DNA of 20,587 bases, from positions 1-20,587 of IMG/VR virus record IMGVR_UViG_3300029862_000030, one strand, 5' to 3'. The notes beneath the pieces were generated by a model. It searched no databases, was not told the DNA's origin, and worked only from the letters and a program-made list of their open reading frames with translations. Source of the stretch: a virus. Taxonomy: Duplodnaviria; Heunggongvirae; Uroviricota; Caudoviricetes. Below, piece after piece: positions 1-18,572 of this stretch (positions within the stretch are counted from its first letter, which is position 1; every line of letters begins with the position of its first letter). A program made the position numbers and the translations under genes.

Positions 1-265
1 TGACCATGCCGTACAGGTTAGAAACCGTCAGCGTGGGGCGCGTACTGGTGCCTTTGCCATTCAGTTCGAAACCACTCCCCTGAATGGGATATGCCTGATA
101 CTGTCGCCCCTGCCAGGTGACCGGCTCACCTTTTTCGTTCTGCTCATTACAGAAAAAATAACGTTCTCCACCAACCTCTGTCAGATCGATTTCCCAGAGC
201 ACCACGCTGGCAGACTGCTCCGCACGGGTGCATTCATTCAGTGTTTCCTGTCGGATATCCTGCAT
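1..265 (-). CDS. Minor tail protein L (lambda gpL-like), partial: the N-terminal part is in the window and the C-terminus runs off the left edge
   Basis: Reverse-complement translation from the ATG at 265..263 gives MQDIRQETLNECTRAEQSASVVLWEIDL..., which matches my recollection of the lambda gpL N-terminus. The start overlaps the stop of the upstream M-like gene (ATGA). Not in the ORF track because it is cut by the window edge. Confidence 0.75.
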   Translation of the reverse strand, partial: MQDIRQETLNECTRAEQSASVVLWEIDLTEVGGERYFFCNEQNEKGEPVTWQGRQYQAYPIQGSGFELNGKGTSTRPTLTVSNLYGMV

Positions 266-606
266 CAGTTCACCACCTGCTCAATCGTACAGCTGAAATC
301 ACTGTACCGGGCGTTATCCGTGACGCTCCACTCCCGACACACCACCCTCACCGTCCGGTTATGTTTCGGCGGTCGCCACAAAAAGGCACGGTAACCACCA
401 TGCCAGGATAAAAATTCATCCAGCCAGCGCCGGGTTGACTCATCCGTCACCCGGAACACCGCCTGAAACGTCTTCAGTTGAGGATTCAGTCCTGTGGGGC
501 GGCGCTGTTCATAACCGTCACCAAACCGAACCCTCACCACCGACGGTTTCTCACTCACCTGCATCCCTTCACGCGGGACCAGATGCAGCGTTTTTATCTC
601 AGCCAC
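265..606 (-). CDS. Minor tail protein M (lambda gpM-like)
   Basis: 113-aa ORF in the track. VRFGDGY, HGG and the C-terminal EQVVN are shared with lambda gpM as recalled. It sits between the tape measure and L, as in lambda. Confidence 0.8.
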   Translation of the reverse strand: MAEIKTLHLVPREGMQVSEKPSVVRVRFGDGYEQRRPTGLNPQLKTFQAVFRVTDESTRRWLDEFLSWHGGYRAFLWRPPKHNRTVRVVCREWSVTDNARYSDFSCTIEQVVN

Positions 607-3600
607 TCAGCATTCCTCCGTCACGTCGCATGGACAGCATCACCGCCTGCACCCGCTGGTCAATCAGCTGCACAAGACTGCCTGCCGCCTCCGGCCCTAT
701 CTGTCCGTTAGCCCCGTCATTCTGAATGGCGATGTGGTAGACCGGGGAATACACCAGACCGGCGCTGCCGTTCATACTGCCCACCGCGCGTACGCCCAGC
801 GAGCCATCCGCCGCCCGGGTCAGGGGCATAATGGCTTCAGGTCCGGCTTCCCCCATCAGCCCGGCCCCTTTTGCAAACGCAAAGTACGTGGGCGTGTCCA
901 CAATGCTGTTGCTGTACGCACTCAGATTTGCCGATGTGTAAACACCACCTTTTGCGTTTGCCACTGCCCCCGAAATCCATCCGCCGACCGTACCAAGCCA
1001 CCCTCCGGCACCGGAGAGTGATTTCAGTCCGTTAACAATGGCTGCATTCATCAGAATTTTTGAAACTTCCCGGAGAACTGAACTCCCCCAGTTCCTCCAG
1101 TCCACAACATTCCCGGCCAGTGCATCGGAAATATTTGATACCAGCCCGTCCATCGTGGAAACGACAGCATCTGCCGCCTGCGAAGCATAATCGGTGGCAC
1201 TGTCTGCCCAGTTCGTCAGCCCCTCTTTGAGCCCGGCATTCCAGTTACTGCGTAAAGCATCAGCCTTTGCATAATAATCCTGCTGATCGCTGAGACGCTC
1301 TTCCAGATATTTTTTATTCAGCTCTTTCTCCTGTTTCCACAGGGCTTCTTCAATTTCTCCGGCCTGATACTGTCTCAGTAGCTCGTTATTTTTCTGCTCA
1401 AACTCCTGCCGGATGCTCCACATTTCCTGAAGTCGTTCACGCATCCGTGAGCCTTCACCATATCCCAGTAACTGAGCCTCATTTGATGCTCTGACACTGG
1501 CATTACTGTCCGCCAGACTGCTCTCATACGCAGCAAGCTGCTCACGAATCTTTTTCTGGTCGATAAGTGCTGCATTCTGCAAAAGCGTTTTTTTCTGCGC
1601 TTCTGACAGGGTTGATAATTCGCCCTGACTGACCTGATATTTCATCTTAGCCAGTTCAGTATTCTGCCCTGCCAGTGCTATCTGTTCTTTTTGCTGTTTA
1701 ATCAGCCGTTTATAAATATCCTCTGTTTTTTCCGCTTCGGTCTTTTTATGCGCTTTGGGTTTATTTGCCTGGTTATTTCGCCATGCATCCAGTGAGTTAT
1801 TTATATAATTCAGTCTTGCTGTCTGATACGCCTCTCCCACAAAGCCGAGATCATCCGCAGCATAACCCAGGCGGGCACGCTCACGAGCTTCCCCCTTCAG
1901 GCGGGACAGAGCCAGTTCGCGCTCGCTGTTATTCAGTGCGGTCTGCTGTTTATCATCCAGGGTTGCCTGTGGTAGCCGTAACGGTACATTCACCAGCCCC
2001 TGTCGCTGCTGAAGTAATTCATTACCGAGCCCGAGAAGGCGATTAAACTCGGTATGCTGCCCATTCATGATCAACAGGGACTGATACGCTTTGTTTTGTT
2101 CCGCTGCCTGTTGACGGATCAACGCCACCCGTCGCTCCTCCAGCCCGGCAAGCACATCCTGAATGGATTGCGCTTTGCCCTGCATTTGAGTGAGGCGAGA
2201 CTGTTCAACTGCCAGTTGATTTGTTGCTTCTGCAAGCCCTTCTGTGACAGTTTTTACCGACGTCATGTGGTTAATCATAAAACCGTTATCGGTTGTCCAG
2301 CCCGGGTTTGCCAGCACATACTGATAGCCAGCAATTTTTTCCTGTAAGGATTTAATCTTACTTTTCTGCTCGTCAATTAACCTGTTTTGCTCCTTCAGTG
2401 CCTGTCGCGTCTTTTCCTCATTATCTGACGCTTCAGGAAGCGACATTGCCGACGTTTTCTGGCGAATTTCGTCGATTGTTGCGGCATACTGGCGTGCAGA
2501 TTCTCTGGCCTGCTCCTGATTCTGATACATCGTGTACCAGGCCGCAGCCCCCAGCATGACGAGTCCCGGCACACCACCAACCAGCCCCAGCGCGCCACTT
2601 AATAAACGACTCCCCACTGACGTAACATTATTCAGCGTTGTCTGTGCCGCTGTTCTGGCCGCAATATTACGGGTAAGTGACACCTGGGCAGCTGTCAGCT
2701 TCGCTTCTGCTGCGGCCTGCCTTTCGGTACCGCGAGCAGCAACAACCGCCTGTTGCGCACGATAAACCGCCGCACGCGCCCTGGCGGTTGCTATCTGTGT
2801 CCCCCGAAGTTGCACTTCAGCAAGAGCCACTTCGTTTCTGGCTGCAGTAATTAATCCGGCAGTTGCAGATCCAGCAGACGACGCCATATTGCCAAAATAT
2901 CGGGCTACCCCGACGGCAACCAGAGCACCGGCAGCGGTTGCCACGGTGTCAATATTGCCTGCAATACCATTCAGCACACCGGAGAGCGTCTTCGTCACTC
3001 CGCTTGCCTCGTTCGCACCACCAACCCAGGCCATAAAGGCGTTTTCAACTTTGGTTGCAGAGGATGAAACCGTATCAGGCATTGCCGCATATTCATCACG
3101 TAATGCCCCAAGCTGACTAATCAGTGCAGGAACAACCTTATCGGCGGTCAACTTTCCGTTATCCGCCATGGCCTTCAGATCCTTACGGGCAACTCCCATT
3201 CCCGCAGCCAGAGCACGAATAACACGATCGCCGTTCTCATTCACCGAGTTAAACTCTTCACCGCGCAGCACTCCCTGCGCCAGAGCCTGACTGAACTGCG
3301 TGATCACCGAACTGGCTTCTGCTGTACTGGCACCGGATAATTTCAGGCCCGTGGAGATCGCCTCGGTGACTTTCAGTACCTCCTCAGAACTGTAACCATA
3401 CTCCCGCATGGAAGCTGCAGAGCGGGCAAAAAGGCTGGCGTTATCAGAAAAAGCCGTCCCCGTTCTCTGGCTGATCGCCATTAATTCACGCTGTGATGAC
3501 TGAAAATCATCACTGGACTGTGAGGCCTGCTTCAGACGGGCATTTACTGAATTCCACTCATCGGCGAGAGAAATAAGATGACCGGTAGCAAAAGCCCCGG

Positions 3601-12519: not shown

Positions 12520-13035
12520 ATGGATAAAACCAGAAAATATGACAGAGCCTTACAACTTGAAATCCTCAATGCCCTTATAGATTGCGCGCCTAACTCTTTA
12601 AACAAGGCACAGGAGCGAGACCTCATTGAGAAGTTTGACAGTTACGATCACTTTGTGGCGTGCATGTTATACCTTGAAATGCATGGTCTCGTTTCCACCC
12701 CCTTCATACGCAGTGACACCATGGCTGGCGTTGAGTTTATCTTCTGTGCCCCTAACTGCTACATTACAGAAAAAGGAATTGATTTTCTTCTCGATGATGG
12801 CGGCTTAAGTGCGATCCTTAAAGTTCAGACCTTTCGGTTACACAGTGACACGATTGTTGCCCTTGAGGATATAATCCGTGTCGCAAATATATCTGAAGAT
12901 CAGAAGAAGGGATTGATTTCAAAACTCCGAGAGCTTCCGGGAGACGCCATAAAACATTTGACCCTACAGTTACTGACTCAGGGGGTTCTGAATCTGCCGA
13001 ACGCACTTCGACTAATTCAAACAACCCTCCAGTAG
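12520..13035 (+). CDS. Hypothetical protein, unknown function; AT-rich gene on the opposite strand to the late operon
   Basis: 171-aa plus-strand ORF with a GGAG Shine-Dalgarno sequence 9 nt upstream of the ATG. Base composition is visibly more AT-rich than the flanking late genes. It is inserted between the HNH endonuclease and the small terminase gene. Confidence 0.6.
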   Translation: MDKTRKYDRALQLEILNALIDCAPNSLNKAQERDLIEKFDSYDHFVACMLYLEMHGLVSTPFIRSDTMAGVEFIFCAPNCYITEKGIDFLLDDGGLSAILKVQTFRLHSDTIVALEDIIRVANISEDQKKGLISKLRELPGDAIKHLTLQLLTQGVLNLPNALRLIQTTLQ

Positions 13036-15338: not shown

Positions 15339-15344
15339 GCATGT

Positions 15345-15374
15345 AAAAAGGCCCCAACACATGTGCGTGGGGCC
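15345..15374 (-). terminator. Candidate minus-strand intrinsic terminator upstream of the holin (possible tR'-like element)
   Basis: Minus-strand reading gives a GGCCCCA/TGGGGCC stem around an 11-nt loop containing the palindrome CACATGTG, followed by TTTTTAC. Confidence 0.45.
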
Positions 15375-15574
15375 TGAGAGTATACATGGTTTCAGTCAAC
15401 TGCATGGTGCCGGGTGCCTCCCGGTGAATTCAGTACCAGCACCTGAATCCGCGATTATCCCATATACCTACTCGCTGATTGCCCATCCGCACAGGGGGAT
15501 TCACCATGCCAGTTTCTTTTAACAAACTCCCCGCAAAACAGACAACTGTCAACCGTCTGAATTGTGAGACATTT

Positions 15575-15614: not shown

Positions 15615-15691
15615 TGGCGCGTTGTACTGGATTCGAACCAGTGACCGATTGCTTAGAAGGCAATTGCTCTGTCCGGTTGAGCTAACAACGC
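15615..15691 (-). tRNA. tRNA-Arg (anticodon TCT, reads AGA), argO-like
   Basis: Hand-folded from the reverse complement: acceptor stem GCGTTGT/ACAACGC, D arm GCTC..GAGC, anticodon stem ATTGC/GCAAT with loop CTTCTAA, T arm CTGGTTCGAATCCAG, discriminator G and an encoded CCA. Similar to E. coli argU. Confidence 0.8.
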
Positions 15692-15704
15692 AGGGTACAG
15701 ATAA

Positions 15705-15781
15705 TGGACCGCCATCGAGGACTCGAACCCCGCGCAACCAGCTTCGAAGGCTGGTGCTCTATCCTGATGAGCTAATGGCGG
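15705..15781 (-). tRNA. tRNA-Arg (anticodon TCG as read by hand, reads CGA), argN-like
   Basis: Hand-folded: acceptor stem CCGCCAT/ATGGCGG (C1-G72), D stem GCTC/GAGC, anticodon stem CCAGC/GCTGG with loop CTTCGAA, T arm CGGGGTTCGAGTCCTCG and an encoded CCA. The anticodon call depends on my loop assignment. Confidence 0.65.
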
Positions 15782-15788
15782 TATGTGA

Positions 15789-15864
15789 TGGTGGCCCTTG
15801 CTGGATTTGAACCAGCGACCTGGCGATTATGAGTCGCTCGCTCTCACCACTGAGCTAAAGGGCC
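15789..15864 (-). tRNA. tRNA-Ile2 (anticodon CAT, lysidine type, reads AUA), ileZ/ileX-like
   Basis: Hand-folded 76-nt sequence GGCCCTTTAGCTCAGTGGTGAGAGCGAGCGACTCATAATCGCCAGGTCGCTGGTTCAAATCCAGCAAGGGCCACCA, which closely resembles E. coli tRNA-Ile2 (ileX) as recalled. Anticodon loop CTCATAA. Confidence 0.8.
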
Positions 15865-15904: not shown

Positions 15905-16243
15905 TCATCCGTTCTGGCTGACTAAATCCTGTACTTCCCGAACCGTCTGCTCAAAACGTTCAGTCTCCAGCTCAACGCCAATTGCACGACGCCCGAGCGC
16001 CAGTGCCGCTTTCACTGTCGAACCCGACCCCATGAAAAAATCTGCAATCAGGTCACCCGGACGACTGCTAGCGCTGATTATCTGCTGCAGCATTTCTGCC
16101 GGTTTTTCGCACGGATGTTTCCCGGGATAGAACTGCACCGGTTTATGCGTCCAGACATCGGTATACGGCACCTGCGCCGTCACGCCAAAATACCGCCGCA
16201 GTCGGCATTCACAACCACCAGCGCATTTAACGTTCAGGCACAA
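15905..16243 (-). pseudogene. 5'-truncated DNA N6-adenine/N4-cytosine methyltransferase remnant (C-terminal part only)
   Basis: The 112-aa ORF contains HPCEKP (the HPTQKP-type motif) and DFFMGSGST (the FxGxG AdoMet-binding motif) near its C-terminus. These are the C-terminal half of beta-class amino-methyltransferases. No DPPY motif or N-terminal half is present; the reading frame runs into the AT-rich region upstream of the porin. Confidence 0.6.
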
Positions 16244-16693
16244 AAAAACCCGCTCATCGGCGGGTTTAAGCTGTGTGACGAAGTAACTACTCTTAACAGC
16301 ATAACCAATTTTTTACGTACGTAAACTACTAAATGATATTTGTGAGAATGCCACCGAGTGTTCAAAACACCACCACAAATACATAAGAAAATTTCAACAA
16401 ATAACCAATTAATAATTTCAGATGTTATTTTTAGTTTGTTTAAATTAAGCTAAAGAATTATAGACTGCTTATAAATAAGTTCCATTAATATAAATTAGCT
16501 AATAGATTTATTTTTGTTCAAACAAGAGCCATAAATAGGATTAGATAGAAAAGGTTCAGATAAAAATAGAGATCTACTTCACAAATTAAATGAGAAACTA
16601 AAACTTACATCTTGAAATAATCACATTGATTAGATGAATATTTATCGCGCAGTGACATCATTTTTTAATAATAGTTCAAAAAAAGGGTGTACA

Positions 16694-17776
16694 ATGAAAA
16701 AATTAACAGTGGCAATTTCTGCTGTAGCTGCATCAGTACTGATGGCGATGTCTGCTCAGGCAGCTGAAATTTATAATAAAGACAGTAACAAGCTGGATCT
16801 ATACGGGAAAGTTAATGCCAAGCACTACTTCTCCTCTAATGATGCAGATGATGGTGATACTACTTATGCCCGTCTTGGCTTCAAAGGTGAAACCCAAATC
16901 AACGATCAACTGACTGGTTTCGGTCAGTGGGAATATGAATTCAAAGGCAACCGCGCTGAATCTCAAGGTTCTTCCAAAGACAAAACCCGTCTTGCATTTG
17001 CAGGCCTGAAATTTGGTGATTACGGCTCAATCGATTACGGCCGTAACTACGGTGTAGCATACGACATCGGTGCGTGGACTGACGTTCTGCCAGAATTCGG
17101 TGGTGATACCTGGACCCAAACAGATGTGTTCATGACTGGTCGCACTACTGGTGTTGCAACTTATCGTAACAACGACTTCTTTGGTCTGGTCGATGGCCTG
17201 AACTTTGCTGCTCAGTATCAGGGTAAAAATGACCGCACTGACGTAACTGAAGCCAATGGTGATGGTTTCGGTTTCTCCACTACTTATGAGTATGAAGGAT
17301 TCGGCGTGGGTGCAACCTATGCTAAATCAGATCGCACTGACGGTCAGGTCGCCTATGGTAAGAGCAAATTCAATGCCTCCGGCAAAAATGCGGAAGTATG
17401 GGCTGCAGGCCTGAAATATGATGCGAACAATATCTATCTGGCTACCACATATTCTGAAACTCAGAATATGACCGTTTTTGGTAATAACCATATTGCAAAC
17501 AAAGCACAAAACTTTGAAGCAGTAGCACAATATCAGTTTGACTTCGGTCTGCGCCCATCTGTTGCTTACCTTCAGTCAAAAGGTAAAGACCTTGGTGTTC
17601 ATGGTGACCGAGACTTAGTCAAGTATGTCGATGTCGGTGCTACTTACTACTTTAATAAAAACATGTCCACTTTTGTTGATTACAAAATCAACTTAATTGA
17701 CGATAGTAAGTTTACCAAAACAGCTGATATTGATACCGACGACATCGTCGCTGTAGGTCTGGTTTACCAGTTCTAA
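16694..17776 (+). CDS. nmpC: Outer membrane general porin, NmpC/OmpC/OmpD family
   Basis: The track ORF 16634..17776 contains the signal peptide [23 protein letters not shown] followed by [16 protein letters not shown] and a C-terminal ...VGLVYQF beta-barrel signature, matching NmpC as recalled. The start was trimmed to the MKKL Met; my nucleotide count in that line disagrees with the track frame by 1 nt, so the start is good to about 1 nt. It is on the opposite strand to the phage late genes and preceded by about 370 nt of very AT-rich DNA. Confidence 0.9.
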
Positions 17777-17779
17777 TCT

Positions 17780-17950
17780 GATTACGAAAAAGATATGTTG
17801 CGGGAGGCGTTGCCTCCCCAACATATAAGTGGCTCCCTCAAGCCACTTCCTTTAGAAGCACAACCTTGCTTCTAACTATATAAACCTTCTGTTATATATT
17901 ACCCTTTATTTTTGGGGGCGTCTCAACGCCCCATTTTTAATAATTTTTAG
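17780..17950 (+). ncRNA. Candidate structured 3' region / small RNA downstream of the porin (IpeX-like position)
   Basis: Three successive plus-strand hairpins (GGGAGGC-GTT-GCCTCCC, AAGTGGCT-CCCTCA-AGCCACTT, GAAGC..GCTTC) followed by an intrinsic terminator (GGGGCG-TCTCAA-CGCCCC then ATTTTTAATAATTTTT). In E. coli K-12 DLP12 the IpeX sRNA is reported downstream of nmpC; I cannot verify identity from sequence alone. Confidence 0.35.
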
Positions 17951-17965
17951 TAAACAATTGGCATA

Positions 17966-18349
17966 TTAATTAGAGTTATTAACAACGATATCCATCTCTA
18001 ACTGGATATCTAATGCCATTAACATCCCTTCAATTATGCCCTCAGCCTTCTGTAACCTTTTCCCGATATAACCATCAGAGCAGCAATGCTTACCTGCCAG
18101 TGACATGAATGTCATACCGACTACATAATAATCTACTAATAAATCGTGCAAATCGCTGTTGTTCTTTTTCAGACGGGCCATGCACCCGCAAATGATCATA
18201 GCGTCATCGTCACAACATTGCGGGCGAGATTTTACTTTTGAAGTAATTAATCCCTTAAAACCGGCGGCAATGGACGACCAGGTCACATCTTCATGATTAT
18301 TAGCCGCCCACGCTCCCCAACGCTCAAGAACCATCTGAATATCACGCAT
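17966..18349 (-). CDS. Late-gene antiterminator Q (DLP12 QuuD-like)
   Basis: The 127-aa product from the ATG at 18349 ([22 protein letters not shown]...) matches my recollection of E. coli QuuD. The track ORF starts 5 codons earlier at an alternative TTG. It lies downstream of rusA and ylcG, as in DLP12. Confidence 0.8.
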
Positions 18350-18434
18350 CAACTTACTCCACAAAAATCAGACCAGAACGCCAATTACAAGCAAAAATCA
18401 ACAAAACAGTATTAGTTGATTGTTATCTCTGACT

Positions 18435-18572
18435 TCATACTCCTGCTCCTGTCAGGGTTTTGGCGTAATTCTTCAGTATTCGGTAATCGGTCAAAACAGA
18501 ACCGGGGAAACGATATAAGCGCAGATGCCCCCAGCGGTGGCGAAGAAGTTCTGCCATATAAAACTCAAACAT
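18435..18572 (-). CDS. YlcG-like small protein
   Basis: Hand translation from the ATG overlapping the rusA stop (TGATG) gives [45 protein letters not shown] (45 aa). It is below the track cutoff. The position between rusA and Q matches ylcG of DLP12. Confidence 0.45.
   Translation of the reverse strand: MFEFYMAELLRHRWGHLRLYRFPGSVLTDYRILKNYAKTLTGAGV

Follow-up and report, generated by a model that had tools for sequence, protein, structure and literature searches.

An NmpC/Lc-type porin cassette between antiterminator gene Q and a predicted late promoter that points away from it in a lambda-like prophage

To understand how a porin gene can be accommodated within the late region of a phage, we analyzed a 20,587-nucleotide (nt) stretch of Caudoviricetes DNA (IMG/VR record IMGVR_UViG_3300029862_000030, positions 1 to 20,587; the whole stretch is referred to here as the window). 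According to a list of its open reading frames (ORFs) and a profile search, the phage genes of the window lie on the minus strand and belong to a lambda-like prophage, and a porin gene of the NmpC/Lc/OmpD type lies on the plus strand (16694..17776). This arrangement raises the question of whether the porin can be expressed, and whether late transcription dependent on the antiterminator Q must run antisense across it. A preliminary description of this DNA had argued that, unless the late promoter were located farther downstream, induction would silence the porin by transcriptional interference. Our analysis makes a different interpretation highly probable. We propose that an intact NmpC/Lc porin resides in an autonomous cargo cassette, would be expressed in the lysogen, lies outside the Q-dependent transcript, and alters outer-membrane permeability and receptor display.

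The porin gene was delineated by Pfam search, alignment to chains of solved structures, and comparison with its relatives. While the ORF list gives 16634..17776 (+), the true start codon is the ATG at 16694 (MKKLTV...), and the AAGGGTG that precedes it resembles a Shine-Dalgarno sequence. From this codon the gene comprises 1083 nt and encodes 360 amino acids plus a stop codon, the same length as annotated in Escherichia coli VR50 and phage 4A7. The match to Pfam Porin_1 spanned the whole profile (residues 29-360 against profile positions 1-337 of 337, E 9.5e-151). In alignments to the solved chains of OmpC, OmpF, PhoE, and OmpK36, mature residue 1 aligned at porin residue 24, and the alignments continued to residue 360. 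As the mature chains begin at this position, residues 1-23 (16694..16762, +) were assigned as a signal peptide with cleavage at ..SAQA/AEIYNK. The protein also contains the PEFGG loop-3 motif at residue 133 and ends in YQF. A full-length family match, a signal peptide, PEFGG, and a C-terminal aromatic residue are all features of general porins, and the product is predicted to form a trimeric 16-strand channel barrel. The preliminary description had named a frameshift or premature stop as the observation that would overturn its claim of a complete porin with a signal peptide. Base-level inspection of the reading frame (16694..17776) revealed neither a frameshift nor an internal stop, and the claim was borne out. 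The gene map likewise agreed with its placement of the porin antisense to the phage late genes, between Q and the lysis and late genes.

Whether late transcription crosses the porin depends on the position of the promoter on which Q acts. The Q gene (17966..18349, minus strand; 127 residues from its ATG) is of the QuuD type and was identified by Pfam PF06530 (E 3.5e-53), which represents the Q21 family (PMC9388147). The protein is 99% identical to QuuD of E. coli K-12 and 77-80% identical to Q of Shiga toxin (Stx) phages. In the record of the Stx phage 06-3462, the late promoter PR' is annotated as overlapping the Q stop codon. The start of Stx-phage PR' was mapped by differential RNA sequencing (dRNA-seq), with the 3' end generated by the terminator tR' located 258 nt downstream (Sy et al., PMC7547250). 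Within the Sakai genome, adding 258 nt to the start site implied by the promoter motif leads to the exact end of the U-tract of the second terminator. This coincidence validated our assignment of the PR' start site.

In the window, the homologous promoter block was found on the far side of the porin. Positions 16239..16327 on the minus strand are 79-81% identical over 89 nt to the Stx-phage PR' block, while the flanks are unrelated. This block, of the Q21/933W type, contains a -35 element (TTTACG, 16325-16320), a 16-nt spacer, and a -10 element (TATGCT, 16303-16298), all conserved with the Stx phages. Alignment and folding placed the start near A16291, with a leader hairpin (16267-16246) followed by a run of seven T residues. 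A degenerate 43-nt pattern for PR' occurred once in the window, with zero occurrences expected by chance. The same pattern was present without mismatch in VR50, 4A7, and the K-12 prophage DLP12 (in K-12, approximately 170 nt upstream of essD). Nearly every IMG/VR locus contained it as well, at a constant distance of about 370 nt beyond the porin ATG. For one IMG/VR locus (L044), in which Q, the porin, and the AT-rich region are all present, the motif search returned no match. The promoter, start region, and hairpin with its T-run correspond to those of the mapped Stx PR' and may form part of a Q-dependent unit.

By this homology, PR' is located beyond both the porin and its AT-rich upstream region and points away from the porin. 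The porin cassette, about 1.65 kilobases (kb), separates Q from PR', and the late genes follow PR' on the same strand. Given a start near 16291 on the minus strand, on the far side of the porin, late transcription would move away from the porin gene. Thus, the antisense passage of Q-dependent transcription anticipated in the preliminary description was not borne out. The fallback position it had offered for the late promoter (15345..15552) fared no better, as this segment corresponds to a small RNA (sRNA) of the STnc100 family.

A different start for the lysis operon is implied by work in K-12. Control of the DLP12 lysis operon by Q is already published (cited in PMC7918800), and the reporter for this operon was described as extending from -121 to +650 (PMC7918800). 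The published primers map to positions 3518 to 2748 of the K-12 locus (L003), a fragment of 771 base pairs (bp) that matches this description and lies wholly on the essD side of nmpC codon 24. The implied start (L003 3397) is equivalent to A16645 on the minus strand of the window. At this position we noted a candidate sigma-E-type promoter directed away from the porin (16645..16677, minus strand), with GAACTA at 16677-16672, a 16-nt spacer, TCACT at 16655-16651, and a start at A16645. It would overlap the predicted porin promoter back to back. Because the PR' and 16645 starts both point away from the porin, lysis and late transcripts would exclude the porin coding region on either reading. In the literature comparison, svsR (PMC12247714) proved unrelated.

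Having placed the late promoter, we considered how the porin itself could be transcribed. As the preliminary description had stated, roughly 370 nt of extremely AT-rich DNA precede the gene. The guanine plus cytosine (GC) content of 16320..16690 is 25.6%, compared to a window mean of 50.0% (standard deviation 5.2%, 370-nt windows), and this is the lowest value in the window and the only stretch below 30%. Based on composition and K-12 orthology, we delimited a divergent control region from the late promoter to the porin start codon (16326..16693; 25.5% GC). In comparison, the porin coding sequence has a GC content of 43.7% and the late genes of about 51%. This spacer is 87% identical to the K-12 nmpC/essD spacer, with the last ~135 nt before the ATG being almost identical.

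Much has been published on the K-12 orthologue. Its nmpC/essD spacer belongs to a set of 78 'promoter islands' and was bound by H-NS in all chromatin immunoprecipitation (ChIP) data sets (PMC3661553). The nmpC gene is transcribed from PnmpC, a sigma-70 promoter no more than 199 bp from the start codon that initiates at a G, yields detectable nmpC-IS5 fusion mRNA, and is described as activated by CRP and repressed by OmpR, IHF, and MprA (PMC11677980). Expression of nmpC was 16.5-fold higher at 37 °C than at 23 °C (PMC8544407). Two porin genes labelled nmpC in strain CFT073 were also upregulated at 37 °C, at the level of both mRNA and protein (PMC12890032). Furthermore, nmpC mRNA is a target of the sRNA RybB in E. 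coli (PMC3333887).

Candidate counterparts of these elements can be recognized in the window. The predicted porin promoter (16612..16647, +) was assigned by eye in a stretch identical to K-12, and consists of TTGAAA (16612-16617), a -10-like GAATAT (16636-16641), and a start G at approximately 16647. A promoter consensus scan of the window did not include 16612..16647 among its listed sites. A CRP-like site, AGAGATCTACTTCACA (16568..16583, +), was seen in the sequence and is conserved in K-12; activation of PnmpC by CRP may act here. Within the coding region, CAGTGGC at codons 5-7 (16707..16713, +) forms a putative RybB pairing site, complementary to the 5' end of RybB.

These data support only part of the earlier proposal that the porin is silenced by H-NS. 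The upstream region is a plausible H-NS target, as its K-12 orthologue was bound in ChIP experiments (PMC3661553), but 'silenced' is an overstatement for a region whose K-12 promoter is transcribed and induced at 37 °C. Conditional control, as opposed to permanent silencing, would be a reasonable description. A further idea, which we consider quite unlikely, is that the H-NS-bound island abutting the PR' -35 element places the late/lysis promoter of DLP12-type phages under host control, with inputs from temperature via H-NS/Hha, envelope stress via sigma-E, and cyclic AMP-CRP. If this were true, PR', which is constitutive in Stx phages, would have become host-conditioned in DLP12-type phages, and a single shared control region of 400 bp, with the predicted porin promoter and the sigma-E-type candidate on its AT-rich island, would couple porin expression to the leakiness of the lysis genes.

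The opposite end of the cassette contains signals on both strands. The interval 17777..17965 shares 100% identity with the nmpC-quuD spacer of K-12, and folding of the plus strand of 17777..17925 gave 4-5 hairpins (-54.6 kcal/mol, z -6.7). From this identity and fold, 17777..17940 (+) was annotated as a structured porin 3' untranslated region (UTR), the ipeX region; ipeX was reportedly mapped to this 3' UTR by Castillo-Keller et al. in 2006. When 16150..18050 was searched permissively against Rfam for the IpeX or StxS families, only chance-level matches were obtained. The terminator scan identified an intrinsic terminator with a T-run at the end of the porin 3' UTR (17915-17932, +). On the minus strand, a hairpin with UCUUUUU after it (17795..17827; the 61-nt stretch folds at -29 kcal/mol, z -5.05) resembles a terminator for transcripts coming from Q. 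This hairpin (17827-17795) would stop unmodified polymerase arriving from Q before it entered the porin in the antisense direction. As terminators of both strands separate the porin and Q, the cassette appears insulated on both strands. In the literature, IpeX is attributed to phage PA-2 and lowers OmpC and OmpF (review, PMC8065619), an effect also known from overexpression of ipeX.

The porin cassette is the classical quuD-nmpC module of prophage DLP12, also known as lc of phage PA-2. Over 16244..18500, which comprises the AT-rich DNA, porin, and Q, the window shares 98% identity with sequenced temperate phages such as Perceval, 4A7, and ev017. Of 5426 complete E. coli genomes, 2466 contained at least 80% of 16250..17960. 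The porin shares 91% identity with K-12 NmpC over 342 amino acids and 99.4% with the porins of 4A7 and VR50. The exact protein was found on 213 contigs. Its cluster is named OmpC or OmpD by the sources, and the JGI name for one member of its 90% cluster is 'outer membrane porin protein LC'. In the 80 IMG/VR loci whose Q is near-identical, the porin was present wherever the locus reached far enough. The Q-porin-PR' layout was the same in 4A7, VR50, K-12 DLP12, and, apart from L044, those IMG/VR loci long enough to show it.

Sequence variation among these relatives was not evenly distributed. In the fetched loci, every full-length porin gene adjacent to a near-identical Q was intact (78 of 78), and together these genes encoded 16 distinct proteins. 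These differed at 51 variable columns, which clustered at precursor residues 182-187, 216-231, 263-267, 302-312, and 335-347. The five segments are probably surface loops, and presumably correspond to L4-L8 of the OmpC structure. Loci in which Q was ~99% identical had porins that were 90-100% identical, with differences that included 3- and 2-residue insertions or deletions. An intact porin with loop-focused variation indicates a functional, surface-selected protein. In one IMG/VR locus (L080), the porin was located ~1.3 kb farther from Q and only 349 residues aligned, an arrangement consistent with an IS5 insertion like that of the K-12 locus (L003).

The cassette has the attributes of a moron: its own promoter (by orthology) and terminators, a deviant composition, and insertion between Q and PR', which are adjacent in Stx phages. 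We also considered the AT-rich part as an independent mobile element. This was rejected, as genomes with the AT-rich part alone are deletion relics that have kept the first ~13 porin codons. An AT-rich region of ~80% identity without a porin gene was observed in E. coli O111:H8 99.1145 (L006 3001..3325) and in isolate VREC0761 (L007 3001..3370). Both copies are situated at the yedK-fliE locus, between an IS200/IS605 remnant and ybcM-ybcL-emrE, and represent what deletion has left of a DLP12-like prophage at that site.

Taken together, these observations suggest the following model. The cassette would consist of the AT-rich promoter region, the porin, its structured 3' UTR, and a terminator, placed between Q and PR' and transcribed toward Q. 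In the lysogen, the porin would be expressed from its own host-controlled promoter. By homology to K-12, this promoter would be activated by CRP, repressed by OmpR and IHF, bound by H-NS, and induced at 37 °C, and the porin mRNA would be targeted by RybB. The product would be exported via its 23-residue signal peptide and inserted in the outer membrane. There, the porin and its 3' UTR (ipeX) may lower OmpC and OmpF, as for PA-2 Lc, thereby changing the permeability of the lysogen and its display of phage and colicin receptors. Upon induction, Q would act at PR' (~16291, minus strand), approximately 400 bp upstream of the porin start codon. The resulting late transcript would run through a methylase remnant, tRNAs, an STnc100-like RNA, and the lysis genes, diverging from the porin transcript with no overlap. 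Being outside the Q-dependent late transcript, the porin would be expressed in the lysogen, unlike stx, which is expressed on induction. The analysis itself establishes that the gene is intact, to which family and module it belongs, where the PR' homologue lies and in which direction it points, and the terminators; the promoter hexamers, the regulation, and the physiological role of the cassette are inferred. The view of the gene as lysogenic-conversion cargo, already put forward in the preliminary description, is supported in the form of an NmpC/Lc-type porin.

Several points weigh against this model. Expression of this particular porin copy is argued from orthologues. PR' was assigned through its homology with the Stx-phage block (79-81% over 89 nt) as opposed to being mapped in this phage, and the effective Stx tR' (the second terminator, at +258) is absent here. 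Moreover, the K-12 reporter construct implies another start for the lysis operon, the equivalent of 16645 in the window. As PR' immediately follows Q in lambda and in Stx phages, it could be placed right after Q in the window as well (17780..17965, minus strand). The strong minus-strand hairpin with its U-run, 140 nt past the Q stop codon (17827-17795), would then represent tR', and Q-modified polymerase would proceed antisense through the porin and silence it on induction. We regard this as very unlikely. A consensus scan of the minus strand of 17780..17965 revealed no sigma-70-like promoter, and alignment of 17700..18060 (minus strand) with the Q-downstream DNA of Stx phages showed no meaningful similarity beyond the Q coding region; a PR' directly after Q was rejected on these grounds. 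Instead, the homologous block, in which the -35, the -10, and the start region are conserved, is found at 16239..16327, in a layout shared by every long-enough locus except L044. The position of the K-12 reporter fragment relative to nmpC codon 24 also argues against it.

Antisense transcription on induction could alternatively come from the early operon, since antiterminated polymerase moving past Q would ignore the hairpin at 17827-17795. The nin-region genes (RusA, YbcO, NinB-like) share the orientation of Q and, like Q, are transcribed toward the porin, N-modified PR transcripts read past Q in lambda, and the existence of a minus-strand terminator suggests that such read-through does pose a problem in the absence of induction. 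However, the early antitermination region is outside the window, and the early region of the closest genome, VR50, contains a helicase and a toprim-domain protein, unlike lambda. This scenario is compatible with the autonomous cassette that we favor; it is possible, but we doubt that it applies. Lastly, the porin might be a silent relic that contributes nothing to the lysogen, like nmpC in K-12, where the gene is disrupted by IS5 and its upstream region is bound by H-NS. The copy in the window has neither IS5 nor any other defect, and its full-length relatives are uniformly intact. In addition, the orthologous promoter is transcribed in K-12 and the nmpC-labelled porins of CFT073 are induced at 37 °C as mRNA and protein. 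A silent relic is accordingly the explanation to which we give the least credence, and we consider it extremely improbable.

Downstream of PR', the window is a mosaic. A remnant of an N6/N4 DNA methylase, corresponding to its C-terminal third (15905..16243, minus strand; Pfam profile positions 135-220 of 221), lacks the N-terminus and begins directly after the PR' leader hairpin. The gene is annotated as incomplete in VR50. It is followed by three minus-strand tRNAs of the ileZ-argN-argO type (15615..15864), with anticodon CAT (Ile2/ileZ in relatives), Arg-TCG, and Arg-TCT, and by a strong terminator (15600-15583, minus strand). Between the tRNA cluster and the holin gene lies the STnc100-family sRNA with its own terminator (15339..15538, minus strand; Rfam 133 bits, gathering score 47). 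We considered this segment as the late promoter/leader of Q and rejected it, because its homologues in Stx2a phages (~70% identical) are ~2 kb downstream of Q and not adjacent to it. The STnc100-like RNA is a passenger RNA within the late operon; a relative, PasD, has been linked to lambda-type Q genes in a preprint.

The tRNA arrangement is that found upstream of stx in Stx phages, and no stx genes are present here. In effect, the late region of the window is that of a Stx phage without stx. DLP12-like sequence gives way to Stx-like sequence within the PR' leader hairpin (16239..16270), where the loop and T-run have the Stx form and the upstream part has the DLP12/4A7 form. A switch within the hairpin suggests that the shared 89-nt PR' block served as a recombination joint. 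Out of 87 fetched loci, only VR50 shared this mosaic arrangement.

The profile search also defined the surrounding genes. NinB-like, YbcO, and RusA genes are on the high-coordinate side of Q on the minus strand, co-oriented with Q and converging on the porin. The lysis side of the porin region contains minus-strand genes for a P21-type holin, DUF1327, lysozyme, and Rz. These are followed on the same strand by HNH, the small and large terminase, portal, protease, major head protein, major tail protein, and tape measure genes. The porin thus has Q on one side and the lysis genes on the other, and its strand is opposite to that of the Q, lysis, terminase, portal, and tail genes. The immunity/antitermination region and the tail fibre genes are outside the window. 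A 171-residue ORF (12520..13035, +) was also observed antisense to the late genes, between Rz and HNH/terminase. It matched PHROG 3983 (function unknown) with an E value of 1e-56, and a Pfam search gave no hit. This ORF may be another cargo gene.

Most features of this locus have precedent. The porin, its location between Q and lysis on the opposite strand, its part in lysogenic conversion, and the regulator in its 3' UTR became known between the 1970s and 2000s, and both H-NS binding and thermoregulation have been reported for the orthologue. The sole substantive correction made here is a negative one: transcriptional interference does not follow from the architecture. For annotation, the gene should be considered a phage-borne NmpC/Lc porin and not the host ompC that automatic pipelines label it. 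An NmpC/Lc porin can change the antibiotic permeability of a lysogen, its sensitivity to phages and colicins, and its surface antigenicity, and the module is carried by about half of complete E. coli genomes. The placement of PR' also matters for the modelling of prophage induction.

Among known systems, the K-12 prophage DLP12 (qsr') with NmpC has the same order of quuD, opposite-strand porin, AT-rich spacer, PR' block, and lysis genes. It differs in that IS5 is inserted at a CTAA site ~60 nt before the nmpC stop codon, whereas the copy here is intact. Furthermore, PR' in DLP12 is directly followed by essD, while a methylase remnant, three tRNAs, and an STnc100-like RNA intervene here. Stx phages (933W, Sakai Sp5, and H-19B) carry a PR'-tR' cassette that is the source of the sRNA StxS, and share with the window the Q family, the promoter/leader block, and the downstream ileZ-argN-argO-type tRNAs. 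In contrast to the ~1.65 kb that separate Q and PR' here, their PR' block overlaps the Q stop codon, and the window lacks the 3' part of StxS, its tR' at +258, and the stx genes. Details of PA-2 Lc ('protein 2', gene lc) and of ipeX were reportedly given by Schnaitman in 1975 and Castillo-Keller in 2006. Likened by description and not by sequence, Lc is also a phage-borne general porin that is expressed in the lysogen, and its 3' UTR reduces OmpC and OmpF (PMC8065619). Finally, the chromosomal porins OmpC, OmpF, PhoE, and Salmonella OmpD share the fold family, signal peptide, PEFGG motif, and C-terminal Phe. The OmpC/OmpD label of the present protein stems from automatic naming only; unlike these porins, its gene is prophage-borne and has an AT-rich control region of its own.

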